A stretch of 64,000 bases of DNA, from contig CAVZZO010000003.1 in NCBI GenBank assembly GCA_963779755.1, forward strand, positions 480,001-544,000. The letters are read 5' to 3'. Numbering within the stretch: position 1 is the first letter of the stretch; every line of letters starts with the position of its first letter. Under the pieces are notes generated by a model, which saw nothing but the letters and a program-made list of their open reading frames with translations, did not search any database and was not told where the DNA came from. Origin of the DNA: an uncultured Gemmatimonadales bacterium (GTDB taxonomy: Bacteria; Gemmatimonadota; Gemmatimonadetes; Gemmatimonadales; GWC2-71-9). The translations under genes and the position numbers were made by a program. Positions 2,937 to 61,887 of the stretch are shown here, one piece after another.

Positions 2937-4985
<2,049 letters not shown>

Positions 4986-5435: not shown

Positions 5436-5502
5436 GTGATATGATACGGACGCTCTCGACTTGTCCCGTACCATTTTCACGCAATCATGACCATTTTCAC
5501 CC

Positions 5503-5583
5503 ACTAACGACTAACGACTAACGACTAACGACTAGCGACTAGCGACTAGCGACTCACGACTAGCGACTAGCGACCAGCGACCA
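5503..5583. repeat. Heptamer array ACTA(A/G)CG x11, right arm
   Basis: 11 tandem units plus a partial unit; reverse complement of the 4986-5037 array. Confidence 0.95.
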
Positions 5584-5604
5584 CCCAAACAGAGCTCCCA
5601 GCCC

Positions 5605-6702: not shown

Positions 6703-6710
6703 GGTTTGTT

Positions 6711-6790
6711 CCTCGACCCCCTTGACCCTCTCGACCATCTCGACCGCTCAAAGGGGTCGAGGGGGTCGAGAGGGTCGAGGAGGTCAAGGA
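6711..6790. repeat. Inverted 9-mer array (CTCGACCnn)4/(nnGGTCGAG)4
   Basis: Read directly; same family at 46641-46718 and 52819-52896. Confidence 0.9.
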
Positions 6791-7153
6791 AGGCTCCGAT
6801 TCCCCTTCGAGCCCGCACCACCGACTCCGCCGCCCGAGCGCAGTTCCTGAAGCTGGCCGCCTGGCTGGTTCCGGCGGTGGGGTTCATGCTGGCGCTGGTG
6901 GCGTGGAAACTCTTCTCCAGCGGTACCATCGAGCCGGCCGTCTTCTTCATCTTCCTCCTGCTGGACGTCGCTAGTCAGAGGCCACCTCCCCAGAAGCAGG
7001 GTCGCGAGCCCGATGCCGAGACCTCCCGGAGCGCGCGTATGTGCCCAGGGAGAGGACTCGTACTGTCTCCGTGGCGCACTTCAGCGCGCGGAGGGAGGCT
7101 CGGCGAGGGCTCGCGAAAGACGACTGGAATTGTCGGCGGTTTGTATCGACCTC

Positions 7154-7182
7154 TTGCCCTCGCCCTCGGCGGGCGGGATACT
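7154..7182 (+). promoter_or_regulatory. Putative leaderless promoter
   Basis: TTGCCC-17 bp-GATACT, 6 nt before the ATG at 7189. Confidence 0.45.
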
Positions 7183-7188
7183 CATCCC

Positions 7189-9501: not shown

Positions 9502-10645
9502 CTAGTGTTGCGTCTCAGAAATCATGTTAACGTCGCAGGGCTTTCTTGATGATCTCTGCGGGCGTCTTCGTCCAGATGAAGGGCCGAGGATCGGCATTCC
9601 AAGGGGCCAGGTAATGCTCAATGTGTCGAACCAGTGCGCGGACGGAGCGGAACGAGGCGCGGCGCCCGGACTGGCGCGTCAGGACGCCGAACCACGCTTC
9701 GATGAGATTGAGCCAGGACGCGCCCGTCGGGGTGAAATGAAAGTGCACGCGCGGGTGGACGGCGAGCCAGGCTTTGATGGCCGGCGTCGAGTGCGTCGAC
9801 GAATTATCGAGGATCACATGCAAGGGCTGCCGGGGGTAGGTCCGCGCCAGCTGCTTGAGGAAGCGGAGGAAGTCCGCGGCCGTGTGGCGCGGGGAGCACG
9901 TGCCGGGAACGCGACCCGAGCCGACTTCGAGCGCGGCGTAGAGGCTGGTGAGGCCATGGCGGCGATAGTCGTGAGTCTGGCGGGCCGGCAGGTGCGGGCG
10001 CAGCGGCAAGAGCGGCTGCGTCCGCTCGAGCGCCTGGATCTGCGTCTTCTCATCCACACTCAGCACGACGGCATTGGTGGGCGGGGCGAGATAGAGTCCG
10101 ACCACGTCCTGGATCTTGGCTTCGGCGGCCGGGTCGGTCGTGAACTTGAACGTCTCCTGGCGATGGGGCTGGAGCGCGTGGCCGCGCCAGAGGCGTTGCA
10201 CGGTGCTCGGGGAGACGCCCACTCGCTTGGCCAATTCCCGGGTACTCCATTGGGAGAGCCCCGGGGGCGGCGCCTGGAGGGTGAGCGCCAAGATCCGGGC
10301 CCGTTTGGCCTCGCTCACCGTTGCGGGGCGGCCGGCGCGGGGGCGCTCGCCCAAGCCCAGCACCCCTTCGGCGGCGTAGCGGGCGCGCACGCGACTGATC
10401 TGGACCGGGGTATAGCCGGTGCGCTCGGCGATGGTGGTCCCCGGCAAGCCCTCGGCCATCAGCAACACCGCCCGGGCGCGGCGACTCAGCCCCGCCGGCG
10501 TGGTCGACGCCCGCACCAATCCTTCCAGCAGTTCACGATCGTCGGCGGTCACGGCGATAGGGCGCGAGTGATTGGCCATGCGGTTCCTCCCGGGCGCATT
10601 CCCGAGAGGCAATATATTATCATGACTTCTGACGCGCTACACTAG
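9502..10645. mobile_element. IS630-family insertion sequence
   Basis: 28-bp imperfect terminal inverted repeats, CTAGTGTTGCGTCTCAGAAATCATGTTA versus reverse complement CTAGTGTAGCGCGTCAGAAGTCATGATA; CTAG (TA target) at both ends. Confidence 0.92.
9527..10579 (-). CDS. IS630 transposase
   Basis: N-terminal HTH (RRARAVLL, WSTRELA); DDE triad in SVDEKT, ILDNSS, WLNLIE. Confidence 0.95.
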   Translation of the reverse strand: MANHSRPIAVTADDRELLEGLVRASTTPAGLSRRARAVLLMAEGLPGTTIAERTGYTPVQISRVRARYAAEGVLGLGERPRAGRPATVSEAKRARILALTLQAPPPGLSQWSTRELAKRVGVSPSTVQRLWRGHALQPHRQETFKFTTDPAAEAKIQDVVGLYLAPPTNAVVLSVDEKTQIQALERTQPLLPLRPHLPARQTHDYRRHGLTSLYAALEVGSGRVPGTCSPRHTAADFLRFLKQLARTYPRQPLHVILDNSSTHSTPAIKAWLAVHPRVHFHFTPTGASWLNLIEAWFGVLTRQSGRRASFRSVRALVRHIEHYLAPWNADPRPFIWTKTPAEIIKKALRR

Positions 10646-13126: not shown

Positions 13127-13573
13127 CTACTGCTTGATCAGCGTAGCATCCAGTGTTGCGGCCTCGTCGCCGCTGCCGAAATCGAAGGTCAGCCCCTGGG
13201 TAAAGTGGACGGTGAGGGTGTTGCCGTTGACCGAGAAGGTACCGGAGGTCACCTCATTGGTGGCGTCGGTCAGGGTGATCGCATTGCCGTTCACCGTTGC
13301 CGTTCCGGTCGCCGTATCCGGGCTGATCCCCTGGGTGGTGGTCACGGCGGTGTAGCCGCCCGAAGCATCGAAGGTGAGTTCGATGCCCAGACCGGAGGCG
13401 ATGCCGTCGATGGTATTGGACGGGTTGGCCTGAGAAGTAAGGGTGATCTGGGTTGCATCCCAGGTTCCGACCAGTGCACTCACACTGGGCCCGGTGGGCT
13501 TGTCGCTGCTGCAGGCGGCGCCGAGCAGGAGCAGGGAGGCCAGGGCAAGCCTCCGCGGAACGGTGGTGGGCAT
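13127..13573 (-). CDS. Lipoprotein, lipocalin-like beta fold
   Basis: Lipobox LGAAC; LVGTW; GGAGG RBS. Confidence 0.7.
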   Translation of the reverse strand: MPTTVPRRLALASLLLLGAACSSDKPTGPSVSALVGTWDATQITLTSQANPSNTIDGIASGLGIELTFDASGGYTAVTTTQGISPDTATGTATVNGNAITLTDATNEVTSGTFSVNGNTLTVHFTQGLTFDFGSGDEAATLDATLIKQ

Positions 13574-28407: not shown

Positions 28408-29046
28408 CTAGCGGACGCCCGGCGCCGACAATTCGGGCCAGGTCTCCGCAATGATTTCCCATGCCGCATCCACCACCAGTTCCGGCGGCTGGTTCGCGTT
28501 CAGGTGCCGGATTCCCGGCCCGCTGGCGGCCCGGTAACAGGCGGCCACCCGTTCCTGAAACCCGGGATCCTCCCGGTCCAGCCGGTCCTGCGACTTGCCG
28601 GCCTGTTGCTGCCGGCTCCGCCCCACCCCCGGCGGCAGATCCAGCACCAGCGTCAGGCCCGGTGCCAGCCCGCCGGTGGCCAGCCGGTTCAGCCACTCGA
28701 CCCGCTCCATATCCAGCCCCCGCCCCGCCGCCTGGTAGGCCCGGGTGCTGAGGTCGTACCGGTCGGAGAGGACCAGGCGCCCCGCTTCCAGGGCCGGCCG
28801 GATCACATGATGCACCAGGTCGGCCCGGGCGGCGGTGATATAGAGCAATTCCTGGCCGGCATCAAAGGGGCGCCCCGCATGGAGCAGCTCGTGCCGCAAC
28901 GCTTCGGCCAGCCGGGTGCCACCGGGCTCCCGGACCACCACCGGCTCCCGGCCGGCGTCCCGCAGGCGGCGCTCCAGCGCGGCCACCAGGGTGGACTTGC
29001 CCGCGCCGTCCACCCCCTCCACCACCAGAAAGCGGCCGGGCGGCAT
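28408..29046 (-). CDS. tmk: Thymidylate kinase
   Basis: EGVDGAGKST, REPGGT, LSDRY, AYQ. Confidence 0.95.
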   Translation of the reverse strand: MPPGRFLVVEGVDGAGKSTLVAALERRLRDAGREPVVVREPGGTRLAEALRHELLHAGRPFDAGQELLYITAARADLVHHVIRPALEAGRLVLSDRYDLSTRAYQAAGRGLDMERVEWLNRLATGGLAPGLTLVLDLPPGVGRSRQQQAGKSQDRLDREDPGFQERVAACYRAASGPGIRHLNANQPPELVVDAAWEIIAETWPELSAPGVR

Positions 29047-29405
29047 TACCCGAGCGTAATGATGTTGCTCGTCGCGCCCTTCTCGATGCCCTCACTGATC
29101 TGCTGGTTCACCTTGAGCATCACCTTCTCAAAGTTGGACCGCGCCACCACGTACGCCTGGCCCACCGGACTGGTTTCCAGATCGCGCACCGCCTGCTCGT
29201 AGGACTGGGCGGTACCCTCGTCCGGCTCCTGACCGCTGGTCAGCGCGGTTTCCATCTGGCGCGCCAGCTTCTGGATGCTCTCCAGCCGGTCACGGCTCTC
29301 CTGGTCGTCCCGGAGGCTGCTTTCCGCGCGCCGCAGCGCCTTCGCCTCCGGCGTCTGGCCGATGAGCCGTCCCAGTTCCTGCGCCTTCTCCCAGATTGCG
29401 CTCAC
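29046..29405 (-). CDS. YlbF/Com-family regulator
   Basis: IWEKAQELGRLIGQTPE helical pattern. Confidence 0.65.
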   Translation of the reverse strand: MSAIWEKAQELGRLIGQTPEAKALRRAESSLRDDQESRDRLESIQKLARQMETALTSGQEPDEGTAQSYEQAVRDLETSPVGQAYVVARSNFEKVMLKVNQQISEGIEKGATSNIITLG

Positions 29406-32517: not shown

Positions 32518-33387
32518 GTGACGTACACCGCAACCTTCCACGGCACCCGGGGCTCCATTGCCTCGCCCGGCCCGCAGACCACGCGCTACGGCGGCAACAC
32601 CGCCTGTGTGGCGGTGAGCCTGGGAGGCGATGACCTCGTCATCCTCGATGCCGGAACCGGCATCCGTCCGCTGGGACTCACCATGGCGCAGGGCGGTCGG
32701 AACGATCTGAAGGTCGATATCCTGCTGTCGCACACCCACTGGGATCACATCCAGGGCCTGCCCTTCTTCCAGCCGCTGTACACCGCGGGGAACCGGGTGC
32801 GCATCTTCGGCGCGGCCCAGAACGATGTGCCGCTGGAAGCGGTGCTCGACCGGCTAATGGATCCGGTGGCCTTCCCGGTTCCCCTGCGCTCGCTGGCGGC
32901 CGAGCTCATCGTACGGGAAATCCTCCCCGAGGACACCATACAGCTCGATGGGTTCCGCATCAGCAGTTTTCAGTTGCGCCACCCCGGGACCACGCTGGGC
33001 TACCGCCTCGAGCCGGCGGCAGGTGGCACGGCCCTGGCCTACCTGACCGACAACGAGCTGGGTCCCGGCGGGTCCTACAATGTCGGGGCGGCCTGGCGCC
33101 GGCGGCTGGCCGGCTTCCTCAAGGGAACCGGCACCCTGATCCACGACGCGACCTACCATGATACCGCCATCGCCGCCCGGGCCGGCTGGGGACACTCCAG
33201 CCCCCGGCAGGCCATAGACCTTGCCGCGGAGGCCGGAATCGCACATCTCGTGCTGTTCCACCACGATCCGGAGCACAGTGACACCTTCCTTGATCGCATG
33301 GTCGAGGAGGCCCGTAACTACGCGCAGGAAGTGGCCCCGGGCTTGCGGGTGGATGGGGCGTGTGAAGGGGACCGACTCACCCTCTAG
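32518..33387 (+). CDS. MBL-fold metallo-hydrolase (RNase Z / cNMP phosphodiesterase-like)
   Basis: GTRGS, YGGNT, DAGTG, SHTHWDH, WGHS, FHHDP. Confidence 0.85.
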   Translation: MTYTATFHGTRGSIASPGPQTTRYGGNTACVAVSLGGDDLVILDAGTGIRPLGLTMAQGGRNDLKVDILLSHTHWDHIQGLPFFQPLYTAGNRVRIFGAAQNDVPLEAVLDRLMDPVAFPVPLRSLAAELIVREILPEDTIQLDGFRISSFQLRHPGTTLGYRLEPAAGGTALAYLTDNELGPGGSYNVGAAWRRRLAGFLKGTGTLIHDATYHDTAIAARAGWGHSSPRQAIDLAAEAGIAHLVLFHHDPEHSDTFLDRMVEEARNYAQEVAPGLRVDGACEGDRLTL

Positions 33388-33400
33388 CGAGGAACGGGTT

Positions 33401-34093
33401 ATGCGCAGGTTTATCCTGTTGCTGTGCCTCACTTTGGCTTTCATCACCGTCCCGGCAGCCGCCCAGCAGGACGGGCGGCCCGGCATCGCGGTGTTGCCCT
33501 TCGAGAACGGCGGGTCCTACGGACAGGACAAGGAGGACTTCACCGCCCTGGAACAGGGAATTCCGGCCCTGCTGATCACCAGCCTGCAGCAGAATCCGGC
33601 CGCGCGGGTGGTGGATCGTAGTGATATTCACCAGCTGCTGACTGAGCAGAACATGGCCGCCGAGGGCCGGGTGGATGCCGCCACGGCCGCCCGGATCGGC
33701 AAGCTGATCGGCGCCCGCTATATGATCATGGGCACCTTCGTGGATTACTACGGCAAGTTCCGCATCGATGCCCGCATCGTGGACGTCGAGACGGGCGAGA
33801 TCCTCAAGGTGGTCTCCGTGGGGCCCCAGGATCGGGAAAAGCTCTACCAGATGCTGCAGCAGACGGCAGACAAGATCATGGCCGGCACCAACCTGCCGCC
33901 GCTGCCGGCTGAGGTGTCCCAGGCGCGGGCGAGGAACATCCCGGCCGAGGCGCTGACGCTCTACAGCCGCGGGTTGCTTTACCAGGACCGCGGCGACCGC
34001 GACAAGGCGATCGAGTATTACCGGAAGGCACTCGCCGTCTATCCCGACTTCACCGAGCCCGGCGAGGCGCTGAAGCAGATTCAGAGTTCCTGA
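33401..34093 (+). CDS. Secreted CsgG/FlgO/TolB-N-like protein with C-terminal TPR
   Basis: Signal peptide; IAVLPFEN, AARIGKLIGA, RIVDVETGEI; TPR YSRG..AIEYYRKAL. Confidence 0.75.
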   Translation: MRRFILLLCLTLAFITVPAAAQQDGRPGIAVLPFENGGSYGQDKEDFTALEQGIPALLITSLQQNPAARVVDRSDIHQLLTEQNMAAEGRVDAATAARIGKLIGARYMIMGTFVDYYGKFRIDARIVDVETGEILKVVSVGPQDREKLYQMLQQTADKIMAGTNLPPLPAEVSQARARNIPAEALTLYSRGLLYQDRGDRDKAIEYYRKALAVYPDFTEPGEALKQIQSS

Positions 34094-34137
34094 CCCTTGC
34101 GAGCGCCGCACTCGACGGTCGAGTCCACAAGACCGCG

Positions 34138-34773
34138 CTAGTGGATTCGACCGATCTCTATGCCTGCCATAAGGTCCACCGTACTGCCGGCCCAGGGTCG
34201 GACCGAGCGTGCCAGCGCCGTCAGGGTGAGCGCCGTATGACCCGCCACCTGCAACCCGGCGCCGATCGTTACGTGGATCGTCGGGCCGCTGGCCTGTGAT
34301 CCCTTGAGCCTCAGTGCCCAGCCAGCCCCGAGCCCGACCACCGGCTGGAGCCGACCTACCAACGGTCTGAGCCCCAACGTCAGTTCCGGCAGCAGGAGCA
34401 CGGTGGGATCGGAGACCTGGAATCCACCGACGTGAACGGTGCGCTGTGCATCGAAGACTGGAAGCGATGCAGCCAGGAACACCCTGCGGTGTACAGCCCA
34501 CGAGCGGTACGCGCTCACAACCGGTGCGGTGCCGGTCCCAACCAGGTCGTAGTGGCTGACTCCGGCACGAAACCCCAGAATCTGGGCGCTAGCCTCGTGC
34601 GAGCACAGCAAGGCGCTGATGACAACTCCGAGAATGAACTGGAGCCGCAGATGGACCCGGCCACGACAACCGCATGCGTTAGTGCTCCGGCCAGACGGGC
34701 GTGAAAAGCCGCTCAAGGTCGCGTTACCGTCCATATTGTCCCTGCAGTCCCGTGTAGGCCGGTAAGCGTCCAA
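34138..34773 (-). CDS. Probable outer-membrane beta-barrel protein (start uncertain)
   Basis: Signal-like segment ending ASA-Q, then alternating beta strands. Confidence 0.5.
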   Translation of the reverse strand: MDAYRPTRDCRDNMDGNATLSGFSRPSGRSTNACGCRGRVHLRLQFILGVVISALLCSHEASAQILGFRAGVSHYDLVGTGTAPVVSAYRSWAVHRRVFLAASLPVFDAQRTVHVGGFQVSDPTVLLLPELTLGLRPLVGRLQPVVGLGAGWALRLKGSQASGPTIHVTIGAGLQVAGHTALTLTALARSVRPWAGSTVDLMAGIEIGRIH

Positions 34774-36012
34774 GGTGAAACTCCAGACGAGCCTGTCGGT
34801 ACTGAGAATGCACCAATCATATCGTCGTCGTTAGTGCTCCGCCAATCGAGTATTGCATCGACGACCCAGCCGGCGACAATAACTGGCAGCGGTAGGCAGT
34901 TCTCTGTGCACCTGATCCACGAGACAGATACATACACGCTCACCGTTCCAAGATATCCATAGAGCCTCTGAGTTGAGGCATCACTTGTCTCGAATGAGCA
35001 CTTCGATCCATGGTCATCCTCCCAGACAATCCCGCCAACCTTGCCGCCGCCAAGGATCGCATTCGCGATGTCAAAATTGGCCCCGATCTGGACGATGCCG
35101 GTCCACAAATCATGGTCCTGGTTGAAGTAATAAGGGGTGTACAGGTCCTCGTTTGCGCATCCCAAAGTGATCGTGTGCCCCACCGAATCCGCAGCGAATA
35201 CCATGATCGCAACTTCGGGCGATCCCCGCAGCCAGCCCTCATACTGCGACACGTTGGCAATGTTCATCTTACACGCCAGCAGCTTGGCCCCGGTTGGTGT
35301 CGGCGGGCAGGGATCCTCCGGAGGCGGGTCCCCACCGCCTCCCCCACCTCCACCGCCTCCCCCGGTGCAGTCGTCTAGGTCAGGGGGACACGCATCTTGC
35401 GACTGGGGCCTGATCAGGGACTCACGTGCCGCGGCGAAGTCGACCTCTGATGGGAGGACCGCAATGACTGGCGTGATCGGAGGAGATCTCGGATCCAGTA
35501 CGTAGCGATGGCCTTTCGTATCGAACGCCACGGGCGCCATTCCATCGCGAACTGCCGTCGCCACGAGTACATTGTCATCACCGGCCCATTGTGCGCGATG
35601 CGCTGGGATCGGGAGGTAGACCTCGCGTGAGCTGTCCAGCGTCACCGCTGCAGAGAACTGTTCCGGTGTGGAATTGTCCGCTGCGGCGACCGCCTTGAGC
35701 GCAAGAGCGGAGGCAGACTCCAGTAACGGCTTCAACTCGACCTTGCCCTCTCGTAATGGAGATTCTCGGAGTCGGGCATGAACCACCGATCGCACATCGG
35801 GATTAGCAAGAGCCGAAGCAAGCGCTTTAGCGAGACGCTCGAGCTTGGCTTCTTCAACTGTTTCGGTGGGTGTTAGTGTGCGAGGAACTGCCGGTGCGCG
35901 ACTAACTGTCTCAGGTGTCGGCCCCGTTGATTGCTGATGTTCGGCCTCGCAACCTGCCGATATAATCGAGGCGGTGAGCCCCCCCCCAAGCTACCAAGCT
36001 TCGCAGGCGCAT
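34713..36012 (-). pseudogene. Lipoprotein (DUF3103-like) frameshifted at a G9 tract; 432 aa if G8
   Basis: AGAAGGA RBS and ATG at 36012; removing one G at 35979-35987 gives MRLRSLVAWGGLTASIISAGC, continuous with ORF 34713..35795. Confidence 0.75.
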
Positions 36013-36517
36013 GTTTTCCTTCTCGCTATGGAAAGGCGTAAACAGCTGGACGTATCTTGGCAGACAATGTTCTTAATCGAAGGTGAAAGGAGCCTGAAGG
36101 TCTGATGAGAGTATCGGGCTGTACGCCACATACGACCGAGCCTAGAGCTAGACTTCACACTCCAGATGCGTGGCACGCGGTTTCACGAATGTCGCACTAT
36201 TGTTGATATCATCTCGATATGTGACGTGTGGACCTAGAGAATGTCGCCTACGCCCGTCACATCCATCCCTAAGCGGCATGCCGAACCATGGGTGTGAGTG
36301 TCCCAGAAGCGGCGCGGGAGCCGGTTGCTCTCGGCCTCGCCCGGAGCTTGATTGTCGCCGGATACGCCGCTTGGGCTGAGCCGTGGCCCCTTCACGCAAA
36401 CCCGTTCGCAGTGGCGGATGGCTCATTTCAGAGCGCGCCGCAATACCCTGCCGGTGGTTCTGCCGGAAGCCGACCGAGAGTGCAGCTACTCGAAGGAGTG
36501 TGGACGCGCGCGGCTTC

Positions 36518-51488: not shown

Positions 51489-51623
51489 AGGAATAAGGAA
51501 CCAGGGACAAGGGACCAGGGAAGCGTGTACCAGGAGGTTGGTCCCTGGTCCCTGATCCCTGATCCCTGATCCCTGATCCCTGATCCCTGATTCCTGATTC
51601 CTGATCCCTGATTCCTGGTCCCT
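51489..51623. repeat. Inverted heptamer array between convergent stops
   Basis: AGG(A/G)A(C/T)n x4-5 (51489-51521) versus G(A/G)T(C/T)CCT x12 (51540-51623). Confidence 0.92.
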
Positions 51624-52809
51624 ATCCCCCCCCTTCCTGCCTCTGGTACCGCCGTATCGCGCTGATCCCCATCGCCGGGCCCAGCGCCAGCACCGGAAAG
51701 GCCCATCGCCACCCCGCCGACTCGGCGAGATGCGGCACCAGCTCGATCGTCACCGTGGTGAGCAGAAATCCCAGGGAGGTCTGCAGGGTCAGCGCGGTCC
51801 CGACGGCGTGGGGCGGGGCCACTTCGGTCACCATGGCACTGAACTGGGCGGAATCGGCCACCACAAAGAAGCCCCAGATTACCGTGACCAGCCCCACCAG
51901 CCAGAGGGGCGCGCCGAACAGAAACCCGACCAGAAGAGAGATGAATCCGCTCACCGCCATCGCCAGGTTCACCGTGCGCCCATATCCCCACCGGCCAGCG
52001 ACCCAACCACCCCAGACACAGCCCGCACCGCCGGCGGCAATGGTGAGAAAGGCCAGCACGCTCACCGGTCCCGCCGCCCGGCCTGCGGGTACGCCCGCGG
52101 CGGCCGCGCTGGCGGCCAGAAACACGGGCGCCCAGGTCCACATGGCATACAGCTCCCACATGTGCCCCAGGTAGCCGCCGATGGCCAGCCGGGTCTCCCG
52201 GTGCCGCAGCACCAGGCCAACCAGCCCCCAGTGGAAGGGACGGCGTGGAAAGGGAGCCGGGCCATCCCGATACCCGGCGAGAACGAGCAGACCCCCGATG
52301 GCAGCGGCCGTGCTGGCCGCCAGCAGCACCCCGTTGGCAGAGGCGTGGGGCAGAGCCTTGATCAGATAAGGGGTCGCCTTCCCCACCGTCAGGGCGCCGA
52401 CGATAGTACCGATCGCTAGGCCTCTGCCGTTCCGGAACCAGGTTGAGATCATCTTCATGGCCGGCGGATAGACCCCAGCCAGGAAGAAGCCGGTCAGAAA
52501 CCGGCCCGCCAGCCCTCCGGCCGGGCCCATCGCGAGCGCCACCCCGGCGTTGGCCAGGGCCGCGCCGAGGGCACTGGCGCCGAAATACAGCCGGGCGGGA
52601 ACGAGATCGGCCAGGTTGAGCACCGCCGCCAGCGCGGTCCCCGCGACGAATCCCAGCTGCACCACCCCGGTCACCCAGGCGGTATCGGTGGCGCTCATCC
52701 CCCAGCGGCTGCCCAGGGCGCCGGCCACCGCGCTCCCCGCAAACCAGAGCGACATGCCGAGCAGCTCGGCAAGGGAAAGGAGGGCGAGGGCGGTGGACTT
52801 CCGTCGCAT
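51622..52809 (-). CDS. MFS transporter
   Basis: About 12 TM helices; SLWF, GVYPPAMK, GYLGHMWELYAMW, ADSAQFS. Confidence 0.9.
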   Translation of the reverse strand: MRRKSTALALLSLAELLGMSLWFAGSAVAGALGSRWGMSATDTAWVTGVVQLGFVAGTALAAVLNLADLVPARLYFGASALGAALANAGVALAMGPAGGLAGRFLTGFFLAGVYPPAMKMISTWFRNGRGLAIGTIVGALTVGKATPYLIKALPHASANGVLLAASTAAAIGGLLVLAGYRDGPAPFPRRPFHWGLVGLVLRHRETRLAIGGYLGHMWELYAMWTWAPVFLAASAAAAGVPAGRAAGPVSVLAFLTIAAGGAGCVWGGWVAGRWGYGRTVNLAMAVSGFISLLVGFLFGAPLWLVGLVTVIWGFFVVADSAQFSAMVTEVAPPHAVGTALTLQTSLGFLLTTVTIELVPHLAESAGWRWAFPVLALGPAMGISAIRRYQRQEGGG

Positions 52810-52818
52810 CACGATCCG

Positions 52819-52896
52819 CTTGACCCTCTCGACCCGCTCGACCCGCTCGAACGCCCAGGCAGGTGGAGCGGGCTGAGGGAGTCGAGGAAGTCGGGG
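52819..52896. repeat. Inverted 9-mer array CTCGACC/GTCGAG (degenerate)
   Basis: Same family as 6711 and 46641. Confidence 0.75.
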
Positions 52897-52965
52897 TTGG
52901 GTTCCATGTGCAAGTCTCCCTTCCAGACGCATCTCCCGCCCGTCCAACAACCGGGGAGATATCCC

Positions 52966-55203
52966 ATGTGGCGCGCTGCCTGTTTCACGGCCGCCCTGGC
53001 GCTGGCGGCGGGAAGCCTGTCCGCCCAGGGCAGGATTGACGAGGTCCGGCGTCCGATCGCGGTAGCCCTGCCGCGGCCGGCCATTGTGCGCACCGCCTCG
53101 ACCGTGCGGGTCACGGTGGACGGGAGAATCGCGAAGGTGCGCGTCGAAGAGCAGTTCCGCAATGTAGGAGGCAGGATGGCGGAAGGCACCTACCTCTACC
53201 CGCTCCCGGGGGAGGCGGTGTTTTCCAATTTCTCGCTCCGCATCGGCGATCAGGACATTCGCGGCGAGATGATGCGGGCGGACGAAGCCCGGGCGGTCTA
53301 CGAGGACATCGTCCGCCGCATGCGCGACCCGGCCCTGCTGACGCTCGAAGGTCACGGCCTCATTCGCGCGCGGGTGTTCCCCATTCCGCCGGGCGAGACC
53401 CGCCAGGTGGTGCTGGAGTACACCCAGCTGCTGGCCCGTGAGGGCGACGCCCTCCGGTTCCGCTATGCCATCGGCGATCGCGGCGTCCGGCAGGCCCGGG
53501 GCGATCGGGTCGTGGATGCCGGCGGCAGCTTCGCGTTACAGGTGTTCCTGCCCGACTCGCTCGGCATCGAGACCCCCTACTCGCCGACCCACACCATCCG
53601 CACCCGACATGAGCACGGCCGGACGGTCGTCACGCTGGATCCCGAAGCCTCGGGGGATGTGGAGCTGTTTCTCCCGCTCAGCAAGGGACTGGTCGGCACC
53701 AGTCTGGTCACCCACGCCGATGCCGGCGAGCGCGGCTATTTCATGCTGCTCATTGCGCCGCCCGCCGCTGCCGCCGGCCGGCAGGTGGCCCGGGACCTGA
53801 CCCTGGTGGTGGACGTCTCCGGATCCATGTCCGGCACCAAACTGGAGCAAGCCCGCACCGCACTTCTGCAGGCGCTGGGGACACTGCGCCAGGGCGATCG
53901 CTTCCAGCTCATCGCCTTCTCCGGCGACGTGCGCCGGTTCCGCGCCGGCTATACCGCCGCCACGCCGGAGGCGCTGGCCGCGGCCCGCGAGTTCGTCACC
54001 GCGCTCGAGGCGGGCGGCGGCACCAACATCGCCGGTGCGCTCGATGCCGCCCTCGCGGCCACTCCCGACCCGGACCATCTGCCGCTGGTGGTGTTTCTCA
54101 CCGACGGGCTCCCCAGTGTCGGCGAGCGCGCGCCGGACCGGATTGCCGATGCGGCCGGCGCCAGAATCGGCGCGCAGCGGATCTTCACCGTGGGGGTGGG
54201 CCAGGACGTGAACACCTATCTGCTCGATCGCCTGGCCCGCGAAGGCCGCGGCTCGGCGGAGTACATACCGCCGGGAGGCGATGTGGAGGTGGCCGTCGGC
54301 AGCCTGATGGGCAAGATCCAGCATCCGGCGCTGGTGAATCTCCACATCGTGCGAAGCCCGGTCCGGTTCACGCAGCCCTACCCCGCCACGCTGCCCGATC
54401 TCTTCTATGGCGAGGAGCTGGTGGTGTTCGGGCGGTATCATGGCAGCGGGTCGGGGGACGTGGTGGTGGAGGGCGAGCGGAACGGCCGGACCGAGCGCTT
54501 CCGGGTGAGCGCGAAATTCCCCGAAACGGAAACCGGCAGCGAGTTCATCCCCCGGCTCTGGGCCAGCCGGCGGATCGGCGATCTTACCCGGCAGGCGCGG
54601 CTGGAAGGCGCCTCGCCCGCGATCGTCTCGGAGATCCGCGAGCTGGGGCTGCGCTACGGCATCATGACCGAATACACCAGCTACCTGGTGCTGGAGCCGG
54701 GCGCGCGGCGGGATGAGGCGGCGACCTTCATCGACGGCATCCCGGCGACCCCAGGTACCCGCAGCAACGCGTTCGCGGCGGCACCCGCGGCCCAGACCGG
54801 CGCCGTGGCATTCGAGCGAGCCCAGGCCAGTTCCAGGCTGGTCGCCACCAAGAGCCTGGACCAGGCGGATGAGGCCGCCAGGGATCGCATGCATGTCCTC
54901 ACGATCCGCGACGGCAATGCCCAGCCGGTACGCCGCGTCGGTGGCCGGATCTTTGCGCTGCGAGACAGCGTCTGGACGGATCTGGCGCACCAGGATAGCG
55001 TGCGGATAGTCGAGATCTCCCCTTTCAGCGATGCCTACTTCAGGGCGGTGCGCGCCATGCCCGAGCTGACCCCCTTCCTGGCGGCAGGCGACCGGGTCCT
55101 GATTGCCGGCCGGCGGGTGAGTATCCGGATTACACCGGGGGCGAAAGACTCATTCTCCGCCGGGGAGCTGCAGAACCTGGTGCGCGACTTCCGGGGGCAA
55201 TGA
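52966..55203 (+). CDS. Secreted VIT + vWA domain protein (inter-alpha-trypsin inhibitor-like)
   Basis: Signal peptide; VIT (EGTYLYPLP, RDPALL); MIDAS DVSGSM, GGTN, FLTDG; TEYTSYLV. Confidence 0.9.
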   Translation: MWRAACFTAALALAAGSLSAQGRIDEVRRPIAVALPRPAIVRTASTVRVTVDGRIAKVRVEEQFRNVGGRMAEGTYLYPLPGEAVFSNFSLRIGDQDIRGEMMRADEARAVYEDIVRRMRDPALLTLEGHGLIRARVFPIPPGETRQVVLEYTQLLAREGDALRFRYAIGDRGVRQARGDRVVDAGGSFALQVFLPDSLGIETPYSPTHTIRTRHEHGRTVVTLDPEASGDVELFLPLSKGLVGTSLVTHADAGERGYFMLLIAPPAAAAGRQVARDLTLVVDVSGSMSGTKLEQARTALLQALGTLRQGDRFQLIAFSGDVRRFRAGYTAATPEALAAAREFVTALEAGGGTNIAGALDAALAATPDPDHLPLVVFLTDGLPSVGERAPDRIADAAGARIGAQRIFTVGVGQDVNTYLLDRLAREGRGSAEYIPPGGDVEVAVGSLMGKIQHPALVNLHIVRSPVRFTQPYPATLPDLFYGEELVVFGRYHGSGSGDVVVEGERNGRTERFRVSAKFPETETGSEFIPRLWASRRIGDLTRQARLEGASPAIVSEIRELGLRYGIMTEYTSYLVLEPGARRDEAATFIDGIPATPGTRSNAFAAAPAAQTGAVAFERAQASSRLVATKSLDQADEAARDRMHVLTIRDGNAQPVRRVGGRIFALRDSVWTDLAHQDSVRIVEISPFSDAYFRAVRAMPELTPFLAAGDRVLIAGRRVSIRITPGAKDSFSAGELQNLVRDFRGQ

Positions 55204-55697
55204 CCACATCGCTGGATACCTTGTATCGCGAATATCACGCGTCGCTCGTCCGCATGATCTACCGCCGGACGGGCGATGCGGATCGCGCAGAGGACCTGGC
55301 GCAGGAGGTGTTTGCCCGCGCCGCCGCCGCCCCGCCGCACAACCCGCGCCCCTGGCTCTTTGCGGTGGCGCTCAACCTGGTGCGGGAAGACGGCCGACGT
55401 TCGGTGCGGCAGGGCCGCCGGCTGCAGCTGCTCAAGGCGGAGCTGCCGCAGTCCACCCCGGCGCCGGATCAGGAATTCGATCGCAACGAAAAGACCGCCG
55501 CGGTGCGCGCGGCCCTGGCCCAGCTGACGGAGCGGGATCGCGAGGCGTTGCTGCTCAAGGCCGAAGGATTCAACTACGACGAAATCGCCGCCACACTGGG
55601 GCTGGCGAAAGGTGCGGTGGGCACCACCCTGGCGCGGGCGCGCCGGCGGCTGGTGGAAGCCTTCCGCGCGGGAGCGAAGGACCATGCAGCATCTTGA
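55200..55697 (+). CDS. ECF sigma-70 factor
   Basis: AEDLAQEVF, WLFAVALN, YDEIAATLG, TLARARRRL. Confidence 0.92.
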   Translation: MTTSLDTLYREYHASLVRMIYRRTGDADRAEDLAQEVFARAAAAPPHNPRPWLFAVALNLVREDGRRSVRQGRRLQLLKAELPQSTPAPDQEFDRNEKTAAVRAALAQLTERDREALLLKAEGFNYDEIAATLGLAKGAVGTTLARARRRLVEAFRAGAKDHAAS

Positions 55698-56829
55698 CGA
55701 CGGCGTGCTCAACGCCCTGCTCGACGGCGAGCTGACCGGCGCGGAACGCGCCGAAGCCGACCGGCACCTCGAATCCTGCCAGGAATGCCGCGACCGACTG
55801 GCGGAAGCGCGGGCGTTCATGGCGGAGGCCGATGGGCTGGTGGAGGCGCTGGAAGCGCCTCCAGCCAGGGAGAAACGGGAAACGGGAATGGGGAAGGATC
55901 GAGACCCCGGAATTCGTCCCAGGCGGATGGACTACCGTGCTCTGGCCTGGGCAGCCACCGTGGTGCTGGCCCTGGGGCTCGGCTATGTGGGCGGCGCGCG
56001 TCTGCACCTGCCCGTCTCCCCGGAAGAACAGCAGGCCCTGGAGCAGCCCCGGCGGCAGGCGGCCGATCGCGCCGTCACTCCGGAGCACCGCGAGGCAGTT
56101 CCGCCCGCGGCGCCCCAGCCGACGACCGAAAAGGGAGCAAAACAGTCGGCCGTCGAGGTCCCCTCACCCACGCCCACGGCGGAAGTACCCGCGACCGCGG
56201 AGCCGGGGCAGCCCACTCAAGGGAAAACCGCGGAAGGTGCTCCGCGGGGAGACCTCGCGGTCAGCCCCGAGTCTCCCGCCGAGACCATCCTCAGTATCGA
56301 GAAAGGCCGCCGCGACGAGTCGGCCGCCTACATCGATGGCGTTCCCACCAGCGCGGAATACCGGGGCAACGCCTTCGCTCCCGCGCCGTCCGCGGCCGCA
56401 CGGGTACTGGCGCCCCGGGACCAGCTGGCCGGTGCCGCCCCCAGCGACGGAGGGCAGTTCCGGCGCATCACCTGGGATACCGCGATCACCGTGCTGGGCG
56501 GTGCGGTTCGGCTGATCGATGGCCTGACGCCGAACGAACTGGGCATGGCGGACGGCGGTGCCGTGGGGGGGTTTGAAACCGGCCGCCCGGTGGTGCGTAT
56601 CAGGTACCTGTTCGGGGGGCGGGATACCCTCGATCTGCTCGAACAGCGGCTTTCCGCAGTGCGGCAAGAACGCAAGACAGCCATGGATTCTGCGATGGTG
56701 CTGGCCGAGAGGGCCCTCCCGGGCGGGGGCTCGGAAGTCCGCTGGCGGGCACCGGGGGGCTTCCTACTCGTGCTACGGTCTGCACTTACGGCCGAAAGGC
56801 TGGCGGAGCTGGCCGCCCGGGTCAGGTAA
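55684..56829 (+). CDS. zf-HC2 anti-sigma factor, single TM
   Basis: H...LLDGEL...HLESCQEC (ZAS), TM ALAWAATVVLALGLGY. Confidence 0.88.
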   Translation: MQHLDDGVLNALLDGELTGAERAEADRHLESCQECRDRLAEARAFMAEADGLVEALEAPPAREKRETGMGKDRDPGIRPRRMDYRALAWAATVVLALGLGYVGGARLHLPVSPEEQQALEQPRRQAADRAVTPEHREAVPPAAPQPTTEKGAKQSAVEVPSPTPTAEVPATAEPGQPTQGKTAEGAPRGDLAVSPESPAETILSIEKGRRDESAAYIDGVPTSAEYRGNAFAPAPSAAARVLAPRDQLAGAAPSDGGQFRRITWDTAITVLGGAVRLIDGLTPNELGMADGGAVGGFETGRPVVRIRYLFGGRDTLDLLEQRLSAVRQERKTAMDSAMVLAERALPGGGSEVRWRAPGGFLLVLRSALTAERLAELAARVR

Positions 56830-57703: not shown

Positions 57704-57719
57704 GTTCCGCTCCTCCGGG

Positions 57720-57760: not shown

Positions 57761-57777
57761 AGCTGCCGGCGATGCCC

Positions 57778-58374
57778 TCAGAACCGGGCGCCCGGCCCCG
57801 AGGGCGGCGGGATATCACGGGTCGGCTCCGGCGGCTCGATGATGATGGGTACCGACGGCAGGGGCGGCAGCGTAGACTGGCCCGGCCGGCACACCGGGCG
57901 CTGCTCCACCACCAGCACCGAGTCGTTCCGGCGGGCCATACGCCCCTTCTGGCTCAGATGAACCGTCCGGGTGCCGATGGGAGTATAAATCACGGCCTGT
58001 CCGGAGAGGACATAGGGCAGATGGGGCGGCTCGGAGTCGGGCAGGCTCCGCAGGGTCGCCATGCGGAGCGCGAGCCGGGTGGAATCGCGCATGCCGAGGG
58101 TGAACTGGTCCTTGAAGACGCCGCTGGCCACCGAATCGCCCGCCAGCACCAGGGCGATGGTCAGATCGCTCCCCTGGATGCTGAAGTCGTTCCGGTTGCA
58201 ACTGGTGATGATGAGCCCCAGGGTGGGATGCTCCCCATTCCAGTCGGGGAGGGCCACCTCCGAGAGCAGAAACGTGGGATCGTCATAGAGCCAGCCCCCG
58301 AGCGGGGTACACCCCGGCAGGAAGAGCAGTAACAGGAGGCCCACATCCGCGGCCCGGCGCCTGGTAGCGGTCAC
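57778..58374 (-). CDS. LEA_2/WHy-like lipoprotein
   Basis: Lipobox LPGC; N-x-N-D-F motif; Pro-rich tail. Confidence 0.55.
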   Translation of the reverse strand: MTATRRRAADVGLLLLLFLPGCTPLGGWLYDDPTFLLSEVALPDWNGEHPTLGLIITSCNRNDFSIQGSDLTIALVLAGDSVASGVFKDQFTLGMRDSTRLALRMATLRSLPDSEPPHLPYVLSGQAVIYTPIGTRTVHLSQKGRMARRNDSVLVVEQRPVCRPGQSTLPPLPSVPIIIEPPEPTRDIPPPSGPGARF

Positions 58375-58627
58375 CCGGAGACTTTCGCAATGAGATCAGG
58401 GTTCGTGTCGCGGCGGCCTGTCGCAGCACGATCGAGGGCCAGACCATGGGGAGACGAGCCAAGGTTCGCCTACCGCACAGCCCACCGGCAGCGCAATGTA
58501 GCGCAGGACAGCCATTTACGGCATGGCCGAGGCGGGCGGGCGCGGGCGGGCGGGTGTCGCAATTCTGGTACACAATGTCGTAAAGGGGGACTTCAGCCGG
58601 GAGAGGAAAACGCCGAGTATAAGAGGG

Positions 58628-59977
58628 TCAGTCCAGTCCCGCCCCATACTCGGAGGTGTCCTCATGCTGCGCGCTCGCCCGCTGGTTGCTCTGCTCCTGG
58701 TCCTGTTGGCACTCGGGTCCTCGGCCTGCGCCGATGCGACCGGTCCCCGGCCCGACAATCAGCCCTGCACCGAAGGACAGGGAACCGCGGGCAGAACCTG
58801 CCAGTAGCACCTGGACATCGAGATCCACCGCGCACGCCCGCTCGTCTTCTGGCGCGGGCGGCGCGGGCGGTCCATTCGCTATTTCCTGCTCGAGCCGGAT
58901 GATCCAGGCGCCGAGCTCATGGGCTTCAGCAATCTGTATGGCGATGTTCCATTCAGCCTTCGCCTTCTCGTGGTCTCCGAATCGCCAGCACGCCAGCCCC
59001 AAACGATAGTGATAATCGGCGGCCATCGCGGGAGGCATCCGGTCCTCCCGGCCTTCGAGATTTCTGACCGCTCGATAGTATCCCAGGATATCTCCAGTGG
59101 TACTGCAGACGTCGAGCAACTCGATGGCTGCGTTGGTCTGGTCTCCCCAATCCGAGGACTCGCGCTGTACTCGGCGCAAAGCCACTGAAGCGCCACCCGT
59201 GCACCCCAGAGCACGAAGCATTCCGGCAAGGTTCCCCAGGGACCTCAACTCCTCGTCTTCGTTGGGGGCCAGACGGACGGCCTCCCAGTAGCTGATGGCC
59301 GCGTCAACCGGCCGGCCCCGGTTCTCGAGAATAGTGCCAAGATCGTTCACAGCTGCAGCCTGCAGGTCCGTAAAGGAATGTTCCCTGGCCTCGACGAGCC
59401 CCTCCTGCGCCAGTCGCATGGCCTCTGGGAGGTTGCCCCGGTACCGCAGCAGCATCACTCGCCCCAGCTTGGCCCTGATGGCTATCCACGGATCCGCACT
59501 GACCCGCGCCAGCTCCTCCACCTCCGCCCAGGCGGCGGCGGCTTCGGACCAGCGCGCTGCCTTGCGGTAGAGGCGGGCGCGCAGCAGATGGATCTGCACC
59601 AGCGCCCTGGCCGGAAGGCTCGAGCCGGCCCACCGCAATGCCGTGGCCGCCACGAGAAGCGCCGACGCTTCCTCGCCCCAGTGCTCCAGGGCGACGGCAT
59701 AGGCGGTGAGAGCGCGGGCGCTCTCGCAGGCATCGTCCTGGCGGGCGGCAACCGTCAGGGCGTGCAAATAGGGAATGTCGGGGTCGGACTCGGGAGCCGC
59801 GGCCAGCTCCTGGGCCAGCTCCTCGAGGGCGGCGAGGTCCCCCGGCGGGTTCCAGAGGAGCCGAAGCGCCAGGCAGGAAAGCGTCGCCCCCTGGGTCGGG
59901 GTTCGCTGCAGGCGCTCGAGCAGGGGAGCAATATCCTGCAGCGTCGGCCGCTCCGTCGCGGCGTGGCCGCCGGTCAT
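58628..59977 (-). CDS. Cytoplasmic TPR-repeat protein
   Basis: Repeated TPR patterns (RARLYRKAARWSEA, LGTILENRGRPVDAA, YRLGLACWRFGDHEKAK); no signal peptide or HTH seen. Confidence 0.8.
   Translation of the reverse strand: MTGGHAATERPTLQDIAPLLERLQRTPTQGATLSCLALRLLWNPPGDLAALEELAQELAAAPESDPDIPYLHALTVAARQDDACESARALTAYAVALEHWGEEASALLVAATALRWAGSSLPARALVQIHLLRARLYRKAARWSEAAAAWAEVEELARVSADPWIAIRAKLGRVMLLRYRGNLPEAMRLAQEGLVEAREHSFTDLQAAAVNDLGTILENRGRPVDAAISYWEAVRLAPNEDEELRSLGNLAGMLRALGCTGGASVALRRVQRESSDWGDQTNAAIELLDVCSTTGDILGYYRAVRNLEGREDRMPPAMAADYHYRLGLACWRFGDHEKAKAEWNIAIQIAEAHELGAWIIRLEQEIANGPPAPPAPEDERACAVDLDVQVLLAGSARGSLSFGAGLIVGPGTGRIGAGRGPECQQDQEQSNQRASAQHEDTSEYGAGLD
58664..58807 (+). CDS. 47-aa lipoprotein-signal peptide (candidate signalling propeptide)
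   Basis: GGAGG RBS; MLRARPLVALLLVLLALGSSA-C; mature CADATGPRPDNQPCTEGQGTAGRTCQ. Confidence 0.7.
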   Translation: MLRARPLVALLLVLLALGSSACADATGPRPDNQPCTEGQGTAGRTCQ

Positions 59978-60243
59978 GCAGGCCGGCTGCCGCGTATGAA
60001 GACTGGGGCCGGCGGAGGGACCATGGCGCAATCTCCCGAATCAGGAAGCGCGTACCCAGGCAAGGCGGGCACGGCAGTCGCCTATGGAGTTAACCTCTGA
60101 ATTGGGGACGCGCCAGACCCTCCCCCCAAACGATGCACCCGCACGATTCCCGATCGCAAGCCGTCCGGGAGATCCTCCGGCCCTTCGCCGTTTGGGCGAC
60201 GAGAACGAAGATCTCCCGGACGCCCGCTACGCCTGCCGGCGGC

Positions 60244-60834
60244 TCAACTCCCCACTCGGACAGTGAAGTTCCCGTGGTCCAGCGGCAGGGGCTGCAGGTC
60301 TGCCCCGGAAGGGATGGTCCCCTGTTCACAGAAGTCCCGCCCCACCTGCGGATCTGCGTTCCGGAAGGCCAGCAGCTGGGTCGAAACGTCAGGGTCGGCG
60401 CTTGCCCCCGGACCGTTGTCGAACAACTCCATGGCAAAGGCCGTGTTTTCCATGAACGAAGAGCCGGCAGGTTTCACCTCCGAGACGAGCCCGGAGATCC
60501 TGGCCGAGTGGCCATCGGTTTCGATCGTGAGGCAATCAATCGGCCCGTGCAGGATGGTCGCGCCCACCACGATCTGCCATTGGCCGCTCACGCTGCCATC
60601 GGCCTGCTTGACGGCGGAGAAGCCAAAGGTACGCAACCCGAGACCGGGCGGAACGGGCGGCGGGAAGTATGTAATGTGCGCGCTGCCCGTCGCCGAGCCC
60701 GCCACCCCGGCGGCCCCCAGCGAGTTCACCGGCCGGCCGCCCAGGGCCGCATCCGGTGAGGCAGGGCCGAGCCGGTCGGATTGGCAGGCGGCAATCAGGA
60801 TCAGCAGCAATCCGGCGATTCCGATGTGCTTCAT
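60244..60834 (-). CDS. Lipoprotein of unknown function
   Basis: Lipobox IAAC. Confidence 0.7.
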   Translation of the reverse strand: MKHIGIAGLLLILIAACQSDRLGPASPDAALGGRPVNSLGAAGVAGSATGSAHITYFPPPVPPGLGLRTFGFSAVKQADGSVSGQWQIVVGATILHGPIDCLTIETDGHSARISGLVSEVKPAGSSFMENTAFAMELFDNGPGASADPDVSTQLLAFRNADPQVGRDFCEQGTIPSGADLQPLPLDHGNFTVRVGS

Positions 60835-60966
60835 GGCGCTCGCTCCCGCGTCTGGTAGGAAGGCCGGGCCGGCAGCGGCCCGTCATGCTTCCTGCCACGG
60901 TACCTGGCTGACGGCGGGGCTCGCTACCAGAATCTTGCTCTGCCCGGGAAAGGTGGAGGCCGGACC

Positions 60967-61887
60967 ATGAAGCCGCTGGACTGCTATCCCACACCGCTCG
61001 ACCGGGTCCTCCTGGCCACGGACCTGGTGCGTATCGGCGCGTTCCGCGCGCCGGTGGACCACCCGCTGTTCCCCGACTCCGGCCCGATCTCCGATCCCGT
61101 CTTCGTGTTTCCCCGCACCAGTGTGGAGATCCGGCATGAAGGGGAGCGCTGGTTCACGGCCGACCCCTGCACCGTCACCTACTACAATCCGGGCCAGCGG
61201 TATACCAGGCGGGCCCTGGATCCCAGGGGCGATGCCTGTGACTGGTTCGGTCTCCGGCCGGATGCACTCATGGAGGCGCTGGCCTGCGCCGATCCCGCGG
61301 TGGCAGAGCGGCCCGACCGGCCGTTCACCTTCAGCCACAGCCCCTCCGATTCTCAGACGTATGCCCTGCAGCGGCTCATCGTACGGCACCTGCGTGAGGC
61401 GCCGGTTCCCGACCCTCTGGTAGTGGAGGAAGCGACCTTGCACGTGCTCGCCAGGCTGCTGGAATTGTTACCGCTGGTCTGGCGGGTCAGCGGCCAGGCG
61501 CCAGCGAGGCGAGGGGAAGGTTCTCTGGCGCGCGGCGTCCGGACGCATCTGTTGCGGCACCTGGGGGAGACCATGTCGCTGGAGGAGATTGCGGGGGCGG
61601 TGGGATGTTCGGTGTTTCACCTCTGCCGCGTCTTCCGCCGGGAGACGGGAACCACCGTCCACCGGTATCGCCAGCAGCTGCGGCTGCGCCGCTCGCTCGA
61701 GCTGGTAGCGCAGGGGCGGGCGGACCTGAGCCGGGTGGCATTCGAGCTGGGGTTCTCCAGCCATAGCCACTTCTCTTCGGCCTTCGCCGGGACCTTCTCC
61801 ATGACGCCGTCGGAGTTCAGGCGGCAGGCCAGCTCCCGCCGTATTCGGGAGCTGGCTTCGCAACTGGAATTGCCGGTGGCGGGCTAG
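60967..61887 (+). CDS. AraC family transcriptional regulator
   Basis: SVFHLCRVFRRETG, ELGFSSHSHFSSAF..F.MTPSEFR. Confidence 0.92.
   Translation: MKPLDCYPTPLDRVLLATDLVRIGAFRAPVDHPLFPDSGPISDPVFVFPRTSVEIRHEGERWFTADPCTVTYYNPGQRYTRRALDPRGDACDWFGLRPDALMEALACADPAVAERPDRPFTFSHSPSDSQTYALQRLIVRHLREAPVPDPLVVEEATLHVLARLLELLPLVWRVSGQAPARRGEGSLARGVRTHLLRHLGETMSLEEIAGAVGCSVFHLCRVFRRETGTTVHRYRQQLRLRRSLELVAQGRADLSRVAFELGFSSHSHFSSAFAGTFSMTPSEFRRQASSRRIRELASQLELPVAG

Follow-up and report, generated by a model that had tools for sequence, protein, structure and literature searches.

Whether a tiny peptide gene and the gene of a tetratricopeptide-repeat (TPR) protein on the opposite strand form a peptide-receptor communication system, comparable to the Rap-Phr pairs of the RRNPP group, is the question raised by a locus at positions 58,628 to 59,977 of a genome segment from an uncultured Gemmatimonadales bacterium (assembly GCA_963779755.1, contig CAVZZO010000003.1, positions 480,001 to 544,000; in the following the window, i.e., the whole stretch of 64,000 nucleotides that has been analysed). 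The original prediction had described a TPR protein converging on an open reading frame (ORF) of 47 codons with a lipoprotein-type signal, and had read the two as an RRNPP- or Rap-like pair. Judged by sequence comparison, we have found the small ORF to be a real, conserved gene under purifying selection, and its product to belong to a large, unnamed family of predicted micro-lipoproteins in Gemmatimonadota. The pair recurs in related soil bacteria and is hence real, and signalling from cell to cell is a possibility to which we give little weight. The locus extends the modules of a TPR protein and a small exported peptide to a new phylum; its peptide is of the lipoprotein type, and its genes overlap.

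The final 180 nt of the TPR ORF contain the whole small ORF, which runs antisense in a shared triplet register, such that codon pairs with codon (M1 of the small product opposite a TPR His, C22 opposite Ala, D24 opposite Ile). Its 47-residue product reads MLRARPLVALLLVLLALGSSAC/ADATGPRPDNQPCTEGQGTAGRTCQ in translation. The coordinates, the length, the ribosome-binding site, the signal with its Cys and the mature part of 26 residues (Table 1) are as previously described; of the supposed convergence of the two genes, the opposite strands have been recovered, but the arrangement goes beyond mere convergence, as the small ORF is fully nested in the 3' end of the TPR gene. G+C-rich genes often contain long ORFs in the in-register antisense frame, where few stops occur and hydrophobic codons face polar ones, and the window DNA has a G+C content of ~67%. 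A chance "signal peptide" opposite the Q/E/D-rich tail of the TPR protein has thus been a serious possibility, in which case only the TPR gene would be real. The G+C content by codon position favours neither of the overlapping frames and provides no discrimination, the lipobox pattern matches 12 start sites in the 64 kb window and is not decisive alone, and the exact peptide is absent from the public protein collection, most likely because gene callers have assigned the DNA to the TPR gene; hidden inside another gene, the peptide gene has probably been overlooked in this genome.

The decision has come from related loci. A scan with one genome per species has yielded seven of them (L001 to L007), all from metagenome-assembled genomes of Gemmatimonadota, with TPR homologues 29-34% identical to the window protein. 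Where the original prediction had expected peptide genes beside such homologues, 6/7 loci carry a homologous small ORF tail-to-tail with the TPR gene, right after its stop on the opposite strand, with 42-45 codons from the family-aligned start; five have been found by the lipobox pattern and that of L003, with a Tyr in the hydrophobic core, by six-frame reading. GGAGG precedes the ATG by 5-7 nt in all six, tblastn with the window peptide reaches them at E 6e-10 to 1.5e-5, and the ORF is single-copy, as neither the window nor any locus contains a second one. The stop-to-stop gaps amount to 22, 6, 5, 1, 8, and 144 nt in the six loci, vs. -180 nt in the window; being located outside the TPR gene there, the small ORF cannot be a by-product of TPR codons. 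All 21 pairs of the seven peptides show a dN/dS below 1 (0.19-0.96), the nucleotide differences at codon positions 1, 2, and 3 number 349, 193, and 405, and 13 columns of a 24-column alignment are invariant (M1, R3, R5, V13, A16, A21, C22, A23, D24, G27, P28, C35, C46), the invariant residues being specified by varying synonymous codons. A chance origin of the small ORF is essentially excluded by these observations; it is instead the tail of the TPR protein that appears as the lineage-specific, disordered addition.

This tail of ~55 codons can be explained as an overprint of the small gene. Distant homologues and the six complete locus proteins end at a conserved helix of the ...EVSASLAQL type, corresponding to residues ~379-393 of the window protein, and only the window clade (P0001, P0004, P0005, P0009) extends 35-55 residues beyond it. 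The tail is predicted to be disordered, with block means of the predicted local distance difference test (pLDDT) of 39-67 over residues 391-449 and values below 50 at 399-401, 403-420, and 445-449. Opposite the hydrophobic signal-peptide core, the tail reads as a polar Q/E/D/N/K run that mirrors it, and in P0004, P0005, and P0009, as read from their proteins, each of the seven positions opposite C22, A23, D24, G27, P28, C35, and C46 is compatible with the antisense codon (7/7 in each). The shorter distant homologues and the antisense mirroring together suggest that the tail has arisen by read-through after loss of the ancestral stop, and its conservation would be due to the constraint imposed by the gene on the other strand.

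Regarding the peptide itself, a profile built from the seven sequences has retrieved 446 protein clusters at E ≤ 0.1 among 979 candidates; the family features given below have been counted over the best 120 of these 446, a sample possibly biased to similar sequences. A search with the window peptide alone has returned zero candidates, so that window-type variants have not been gathered. The members span 41-81 residues, nearly all of them 41-47, and those with a name are "hypothetical protein" of Gemmatimonadales. The signal peptide follows the consensus MSRRIRxLxALxLVSFALxAxA, with eight positions at a frequency of at least 0.9 (R-17 1.00, L-12 0.97, V-9 0.98, F-7 0.93, A-6 0.97, L-5 0.95, and likewise A-3 and A-1, both at least 90% conserved), and the n-region, the h-region, the small residues at -3/-1, and Cys+1 are kept in 120/120. 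Residues +1 to +7 are conserved as C-A-D-[AST]-[TS]-G-P, followed by a linker of 3-7 residues (80 distinct sequences), a nine-residue loop C-D-x-x-N-x-x-[TV]-C present in all 120 (68 distinct sequences), and usually a single H, K or R as the last residue (105/120). Every one of the 120 members contains three Cys residues, and Cys+1 is also invariant in the seven aligned sequences. Lipoproteins are marked by such an invariant Cys preceded by small residues at -3 and -1, and the pattern points to lipidation of Cys+1 and a disulfide bond between the other two Cys. The secretion signal has been judged by pattern and by eye; the cleavage site (A/S/T at -3, A/S/T at -2, A at -1) fits a permissive lipobox pattern of PROSITE. 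A glycosylation sequon of the PglB type (D-x-N-x-S/T) has also been considered for the loop and dropped, for it fits loops such as CDYNNSNTC and not CDTSNPVTC.

Known families hardly reach these peptides. For six members no Pfam family has been obtained at E ≤ 10, and the best NCBIfam matches (E 0.045-1.4) are far below the cut-offs and comprise only lipoprotein signal-sequence models, confined to the signal peptide region, among them the LptM model at a sub-threshold E of 0.57-1.4. The protein atlas contains unnamed clusters of 41-42 residues and a YhfL cluster with a score of 0.82, the latter being a lead only. Among the papers searched, judged by title and the start of the abstract, we have found no description of the TPR/peptide pair or of the peptide family. 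D-x(2,3)-[TL]-G-P also occurs within nine residues after the lipobox Cys in two further predicted lipoproteins of the window (Table 1), which suggests that ADATGP represents a general tether or sorting motif of the organism's lipoproteins, rather than part of a signal; the motif may be typical of the phylum.

The other partner has been described before as a cytoplasmic all-TPR protein of about 450 residues without a helix-turn-helix (HTH) domain, and this description holds. It comprises 449 residues; the alternative TTG start at 60031 finds no support, since P0004 and P0005, both close homologues, start where the ATG lies. Pfam detects one repeat above the cut-off (TPR_2, 28.3 bits vs. 27), TPR_12 matches 48/57 family members, and no HTH family matches the protein at E ≤ 0.01. 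The all-helical repeat architecture comes from the AlphaFold2 model and not from Pfam: from an alignment of 57 sequences, a superhelix of 20 helices spanning residues 17-394 has been predicted (mean pLDDT 90.1, predicted TM-score 0.84). A signal peptide is absent from the protein and from the homologues inspected, and a cytoplasmic location is thus probable. Close relatives are few (P0004 63% identical, P0005 60%, P0006-P0008 33-36%), while an exhaustive profile-free search has collected 152 representative clusters at E ≤ 1e-10, mostly of 380-445 residues, whose named members all belong to Gemmatimonadota. Searched with the family profile, the PDB returns designed TPRs, OGT, and LGN (GPSM2, E 4e-15), and the fold search is headed by LGN/Pins (5a7d, E 2e-6), followed at ranks 25-46 by the Rap structures 4gyo, 8rst, 6t3h, and 6t46 with E ~1e-4 and 12-14% identity. 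The Rap alignments extend over ~390 columns and cover the whole structured part, with TM-scores of 0.47/0.57. A complex prediction for TPR residues 1-396 with the 47-residue precursor has scored 0.02 vs. a mark of 0.32, and, as a run without controls, counts neither way.

In a tree of 23 TPR proteins, picked from ~157 members so as to represent the subfamilies, the midpoint separates the window clade from the clade of the loci, with other subfamilies nearer to each (100/99 support). The small ORF of the six loci diverges from an AraC-type gene, behind which come genes for a stand-alone receiver, a MerR-type protein, and LemA, and a gene of a GspH-like pseudopilin lies upstream of the TPR gene. 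The window contains no counterparts of these flanking genes, except for a weak match to the receiver family REC at 45.8 kb, and only the pair is shared. A conserved regulator as third partner has been rejected, since the AraC regulator of the window (60967..61887) is not an orthologue of the AraC-type proteins of the loci (E 0.23 and 2.3). In the loci, the stretch that separates the small ORF from the AraC-type gene contains an operator-like motif, TGCCGCAAAA[AT]CGCCCTA, which forms tandem direct repeats ~21 nt apart in L001 (3676-3714) and L007 (5246-5284) and occurs once each in L002 (5161-5178), L004 (5181-5198), and L005 (1174-1191). L003 has no exact copy and, read by eye, a similar inexact stretch upstream, and the motif is absent from L006 and the window (0 matches with up to 3 mismatches).

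We tentatively read the locus, at a little less than an even chance, as an envelope micro-lipoprotein gene that is genetically locked to a cytoplasmic TPR gene. The precursor would be exported by Sec, signal peptidase II would cut right before the invariant Cys22, which would become lipidated, and the resulting lipopeptide of ~25 residues (20-24 in most relatives) would stay anchored in the envelope, with a short tether of the ADATGP type and a single loop closed by a disulfide. The TPR gene, encoding a superhelix of ~395 residues, lies tail-to-tail with the peptide gene and would have lost its stop in the window lineage, gaining ~55 extra codons and a disordered tail. As the stops are 1-22 nt apart in five loci and the genes overlap by 180 nt here, no room for termination is left, so that the transcripts must overlap and expression of either gene should interfere with that of the other; transcript overlap and mutual interference would constitute the coupling of the two genes.

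Several observations weigh against the micro-lipoprotein reading. The lipidation, the disulfide bond, and the overlapping transcripts are all inferred. At -3, A, S or T is found instead of the usual Leu, and the site equally fits an A-x-A site of signal peptidase I, so that a non-lipidated secreted peptide is possible. The window peptide is an outlier of its family, with a loop of 12 residues (CTEGQGTAGRTC) vs. 9, Q as the last residue, and no Asp after the second Cys; accordingly, the Gly-rich C-terminal motif which the original prediction had stressed is peculiar to the window and has to be given up as a family trait. One locus, L006, has no small ORF beside its TPR gene or elsewhere in its 8.4 kb. 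Its TPR gene (3155..4489) is followed after the stop by a longer convergent ORF, and a QueC gene is located at 5055..5771. Since the L006 protein nests, with weak support, in the peptide-bearing clade, the absence looks secondary, and the small ORF has probably been lost from, or moved in, this locus. Tight packing alone could keep the genes adjacent without any functional coupling, as there is almost no neutral breakpoint between them, and, conversely, a convergent pair that has survived so deep a split may be tied more closely in function, e.g., by binding. Finally, it is a weakness of this reading that it gives the TPR protein no role.

A role is provided by the RRNPP-like communication of the original prediction, in which the exported precursor would release a soluble peptide, e.g., the C-terminal loop, that would be re-imported to fill the groove of the HTH-less TPR protein, which in turn is proposed to act Rap-like on a partner. 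The in-silico signature of such systems, in the part of PMC10075063 drawn on here, consists of a small propeptide (10-100 residues), a Sec-type signal, for which the "relaxed" level admits lipoprotein-type signals, a receptor of 250-500 residues, TPRs, and adjacent genes, and all five features are displayed by the pair (47-residue propeptide, signal, 449-residue receptor, TPRs, adjacency). Lipobox-type propeptides are also known, 211 of 2,734 classified RRNPPA propeptides being predicted as Sec/SPII, i.e., signal peptidase II substrates (PMC9765709, the portion considered). The pairing has been kept in six of the seven loci and on both sides of the tree, Rap structures align over the whole structured part, and the linker and four loop positions vary. 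A stand-alone receiver-domain gene is found nearby in six loci, and such receivers are the kind of target that Rap proteins act on. These points are opposed by the lack of any RRNPP-specific sequence signal: Rap-, Rgg-, NprR-, PlcR-, and AimR-specific models of Pfam and NCBIfam match 0/57 members of the TPR family, which are hit by generic TPR models only, and RRNPP proteins are missing from the best 60 of 157 PDB sequence matches, so descent from Rap, Rgg, NprR, PlcR, PrgX or AimR is not supported at the sequence level. In the structural comparison, matches with Rap have indeed been found, but these rank below LGN/Pins and are no better than designed TPRs; the modelled architecture is compatible with Rap in its full alignment and lack of an HTH, and not specifically Rap-like, and the fold alone does not decide. 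The earlier analogy is partly supported. Conservation extends over the signal peptide, Cys+1, tether, and loop frame, which fits a structural mini-lipoprotein better than a pro-pheromone with a diversifying active end, and the mature peptide has no free linear tail at its end. Release from the lipid anchor and import through two membranes are unsupported steps, and L006 lacks the peptide gene altogether. No oligopeptide permease family has been found in the Pfam scans of 48 window proteins, where adjacency would not be required. The convergent, overlapping gene order differs from the usual RRNPP layout, which is same-direction or divergent. Taken together, we regard RRNPP-like communication as unlikely. 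The same degree of doubt applies to a TPR-receptor/peptide module independent of RRNPP, in which the Gemmatimonadota micro-precursor would supply the ligand, as Cys-loop or signal-peptide fragment, and overlapping transcripts would provide cross-regulation.

Recognition inside the cell is a further, distinctly improbable explanation, according to which the TPR protein would bind the signal peptide of the precursor before export, or a cleaved fragment of it, acting as a dedicated export chaperone for a protein whose small length precludes co-translational targeting, or reporting on how lipoproteins are processed. The signal peptide seems to be conserved far beyond the needs of export, and the TPR protein, having no signal peptide of its own, shares a compartment only with the precursor or the cleaved signal peptide. 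Enterococcal pheromones, whose precursors are processed by Lgt, Lsp, and Eep, moreover provide an example of Eep-made lipoprotein signal-peptide fragments serving as ligands of TPR-type receptors (PMC4173765, in the part used). The conservation may, however, be inflated by close relatives among the best 120 of 446 clusters, and the strongly conserved mature part would be left unexplained. A bacteriocin or a ribosomally synthesized and post-translationally modified peptide (RiPP), with the TPR protein serving in maturation or immunity, would agree with a short, Cys-containing, exported peptide, and 8/57 TPR members weakly match HaaT, a TPR model of RiPP biosynthesis (best E 1.4e-6). This match is one among many generic TPR cross-matches, the conserved neighbours of the pair include no modifying enzyme, transporter or immunity gene, and the gene occurs in one copy amid chromosomal housekeeping genes, all of which renders such a precursor very improbable.

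Table 1. Positions of the two overlapping genes, their parts, and the related features in the window (+, forward strand; -, reverse strand).
Feature	Position	Strand	Remarks
TPR ORF	58628..59977	-	449 aa counted from ATG
Small ORF, micro-lipoprotein precursor (P0003)	58664..58807	+	47 codons + stop
GGAGG ribosome-binding site	58652..58656	+	7 nt ahead of small-ORF ATG
Signal peptide, residues 1-21	58664..58726	+	basic n-region, hydrophobic core, S-S-A preceding Cys
Mature part, residues 22-47	58727..58804	+	Cys+1 (putative lipidation site), ADATGP tether, linker, loop
Cys35...Cys46 loop	58766-58801	+	disulfide putative
TPR structured part, residues 1-394, 20 helices	58796..59977	-	AlphaFold2 model
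TPR C-terminal tail, residues 395-449 + stop	58628..58795	-	probable read-through, antisense to small ORF
Region upstream of small ORF	58375..58663	+	intergenic; small-ORF promoter must lie here
LEA_2 lipoprotein gene	57778..58374		divergent from small ORF; upstream region common to both
Predicted lipoprotein AAC/SSDKPTGP	13127..13573	-	
Predicted lipoprotein AAC/QSDRLGP	60244..60834	-	

A promoter scan has detected no sigma-70-type consensus in 58200-60300. In the same interval, a single terminator-like hairpin with a T-rich tail has been noted at 58863..58879 (+), 56 nt past the small-ORF stop and inside TPR coding sequence; one is the number expected from shuffled sequence, and the hairpin may mean nothing. 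An Rfam scan of 57000-61000 at E ≤ 1 has given sub-threshold matches only, none of them in 58375-59977. The window represents ordinary chromosome, with genes for ribosomal proteins S6 and L9, SMC, RF-1, PrmC, a H+-pyrophosphatase, and phosphoribosyl pyrophosphate synthetase. Around the pair, we have found an extracytoplasmic function (ECF) sigma factor with a zf-HC2 anti-sigma factor, an outer membrane beta-barrel protein, the LEA_2 lipoprotein, a lipoprotein of 196 residues, the AraC regulator, and a Mg-chelatase-like ATPase. The ECF sigma factor (55200..55697) and the anti-sigma factor (55612..56829, both +) are encoded in overlapping frames ~2 kb from the pair and are preceded by an ORF of 768 codons (52897..55203, +). 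Elsewhere in the window, a 290-residue protein (33221..34093, +) has a CsgG-like domain, of the curli secretion channel family, and a TPR repeat at its C-terminus, and a Com_YlbF (YlbF/YmcA) protein, from a family described as controlling the competence regulator ComK, is encoded between thymidylate kinase and PrmC (29046..29405, -). The sole mobile-element gene seen is that of a DDE_3 transposase with HTH domains (9527..10612, -), beside which a 930-residue protein without a Pfam family at E ≤ 1e-5 is encoded (6706..9498, +). Two intervals of 2.4 kb and 1.4 kb, 34094..36517 and 51489..52896, contain no ORF passing a crude filter on G+C content by codon position.

At least 446 clusters of exported peptides of 41-47 residues thus stand without a name or a family model. 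The locus furthermore offers a clean natural case of overprinting, in which a TPR gene deprived of its ancestral stop would translate the antisense of a conserved gene, and overprinting accounts for a "disordered tail" whose conservation is oddly high. Should the TPR protein read the peptide, peptide-TPR signalling becomes testable in Gemmatimonadota, a widespread and poorly studied soil phylum; if the communication reading is true, the pair would for the first time extend signalling between a peptide and a TPR receptor beyond Firmicutes, to an abundant diderm phylum of soil.

Among the known systems, the peptide-binding superhelices of LGN/Pins are the best match of the window TPR protein in both structure and PDB sequence, but they are eukaryotic scaffold proteins, and, at 15-20% identity, the likeness does not go beyond the generic TPR fold. 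LptM, the entericidins, and YhfL/DUF4223 resemble the peptide in their precursors of 40-55 residues, their lipobox, and their very short mature parts; the present family reaches no cut-off of their models, the weak matches span the signal peptide only, and the ADATGP tether and the nine-residue Cys loop are specific to it. With Rap-Phr and RRNPP(A) systems the pair shares the cytoplasmic TPR protein of 250-500 residues beside a small gene for a Sec-exported peptide (PMC10075063, the part drawn on), lipobox-type propeptides, which occur there too (PMC9765709, likewise in part), and, as regards Rap, a receptor without an HTH whose structured part aligns fully. It differs from them in its diderm host of the Gemmatimonadota, RRNPP(A) being systems of Firmicutes and their mobile elements, in a TPR family with no relationship to theirs at the sequence level, in the convergent and overlapping genes, and in a peptide whose putative lipidation Cys is invariant and which retains a Cys-Cys loop. 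To the enterococcal sex pheromones (Eep, PptAB; PrgX-type receptor) the window family is similar in that the precursor is a lipoprotein processed at its Cys, and in the conserved sequence of its signal peptide, which could be the functional part. Enterococcal pheromone precursors are, however, ordinary lipoproteins encoded away from the receptor, whereas the mature part in the window comprises only ~25 residues and its gene abuts that of the TPR protein.

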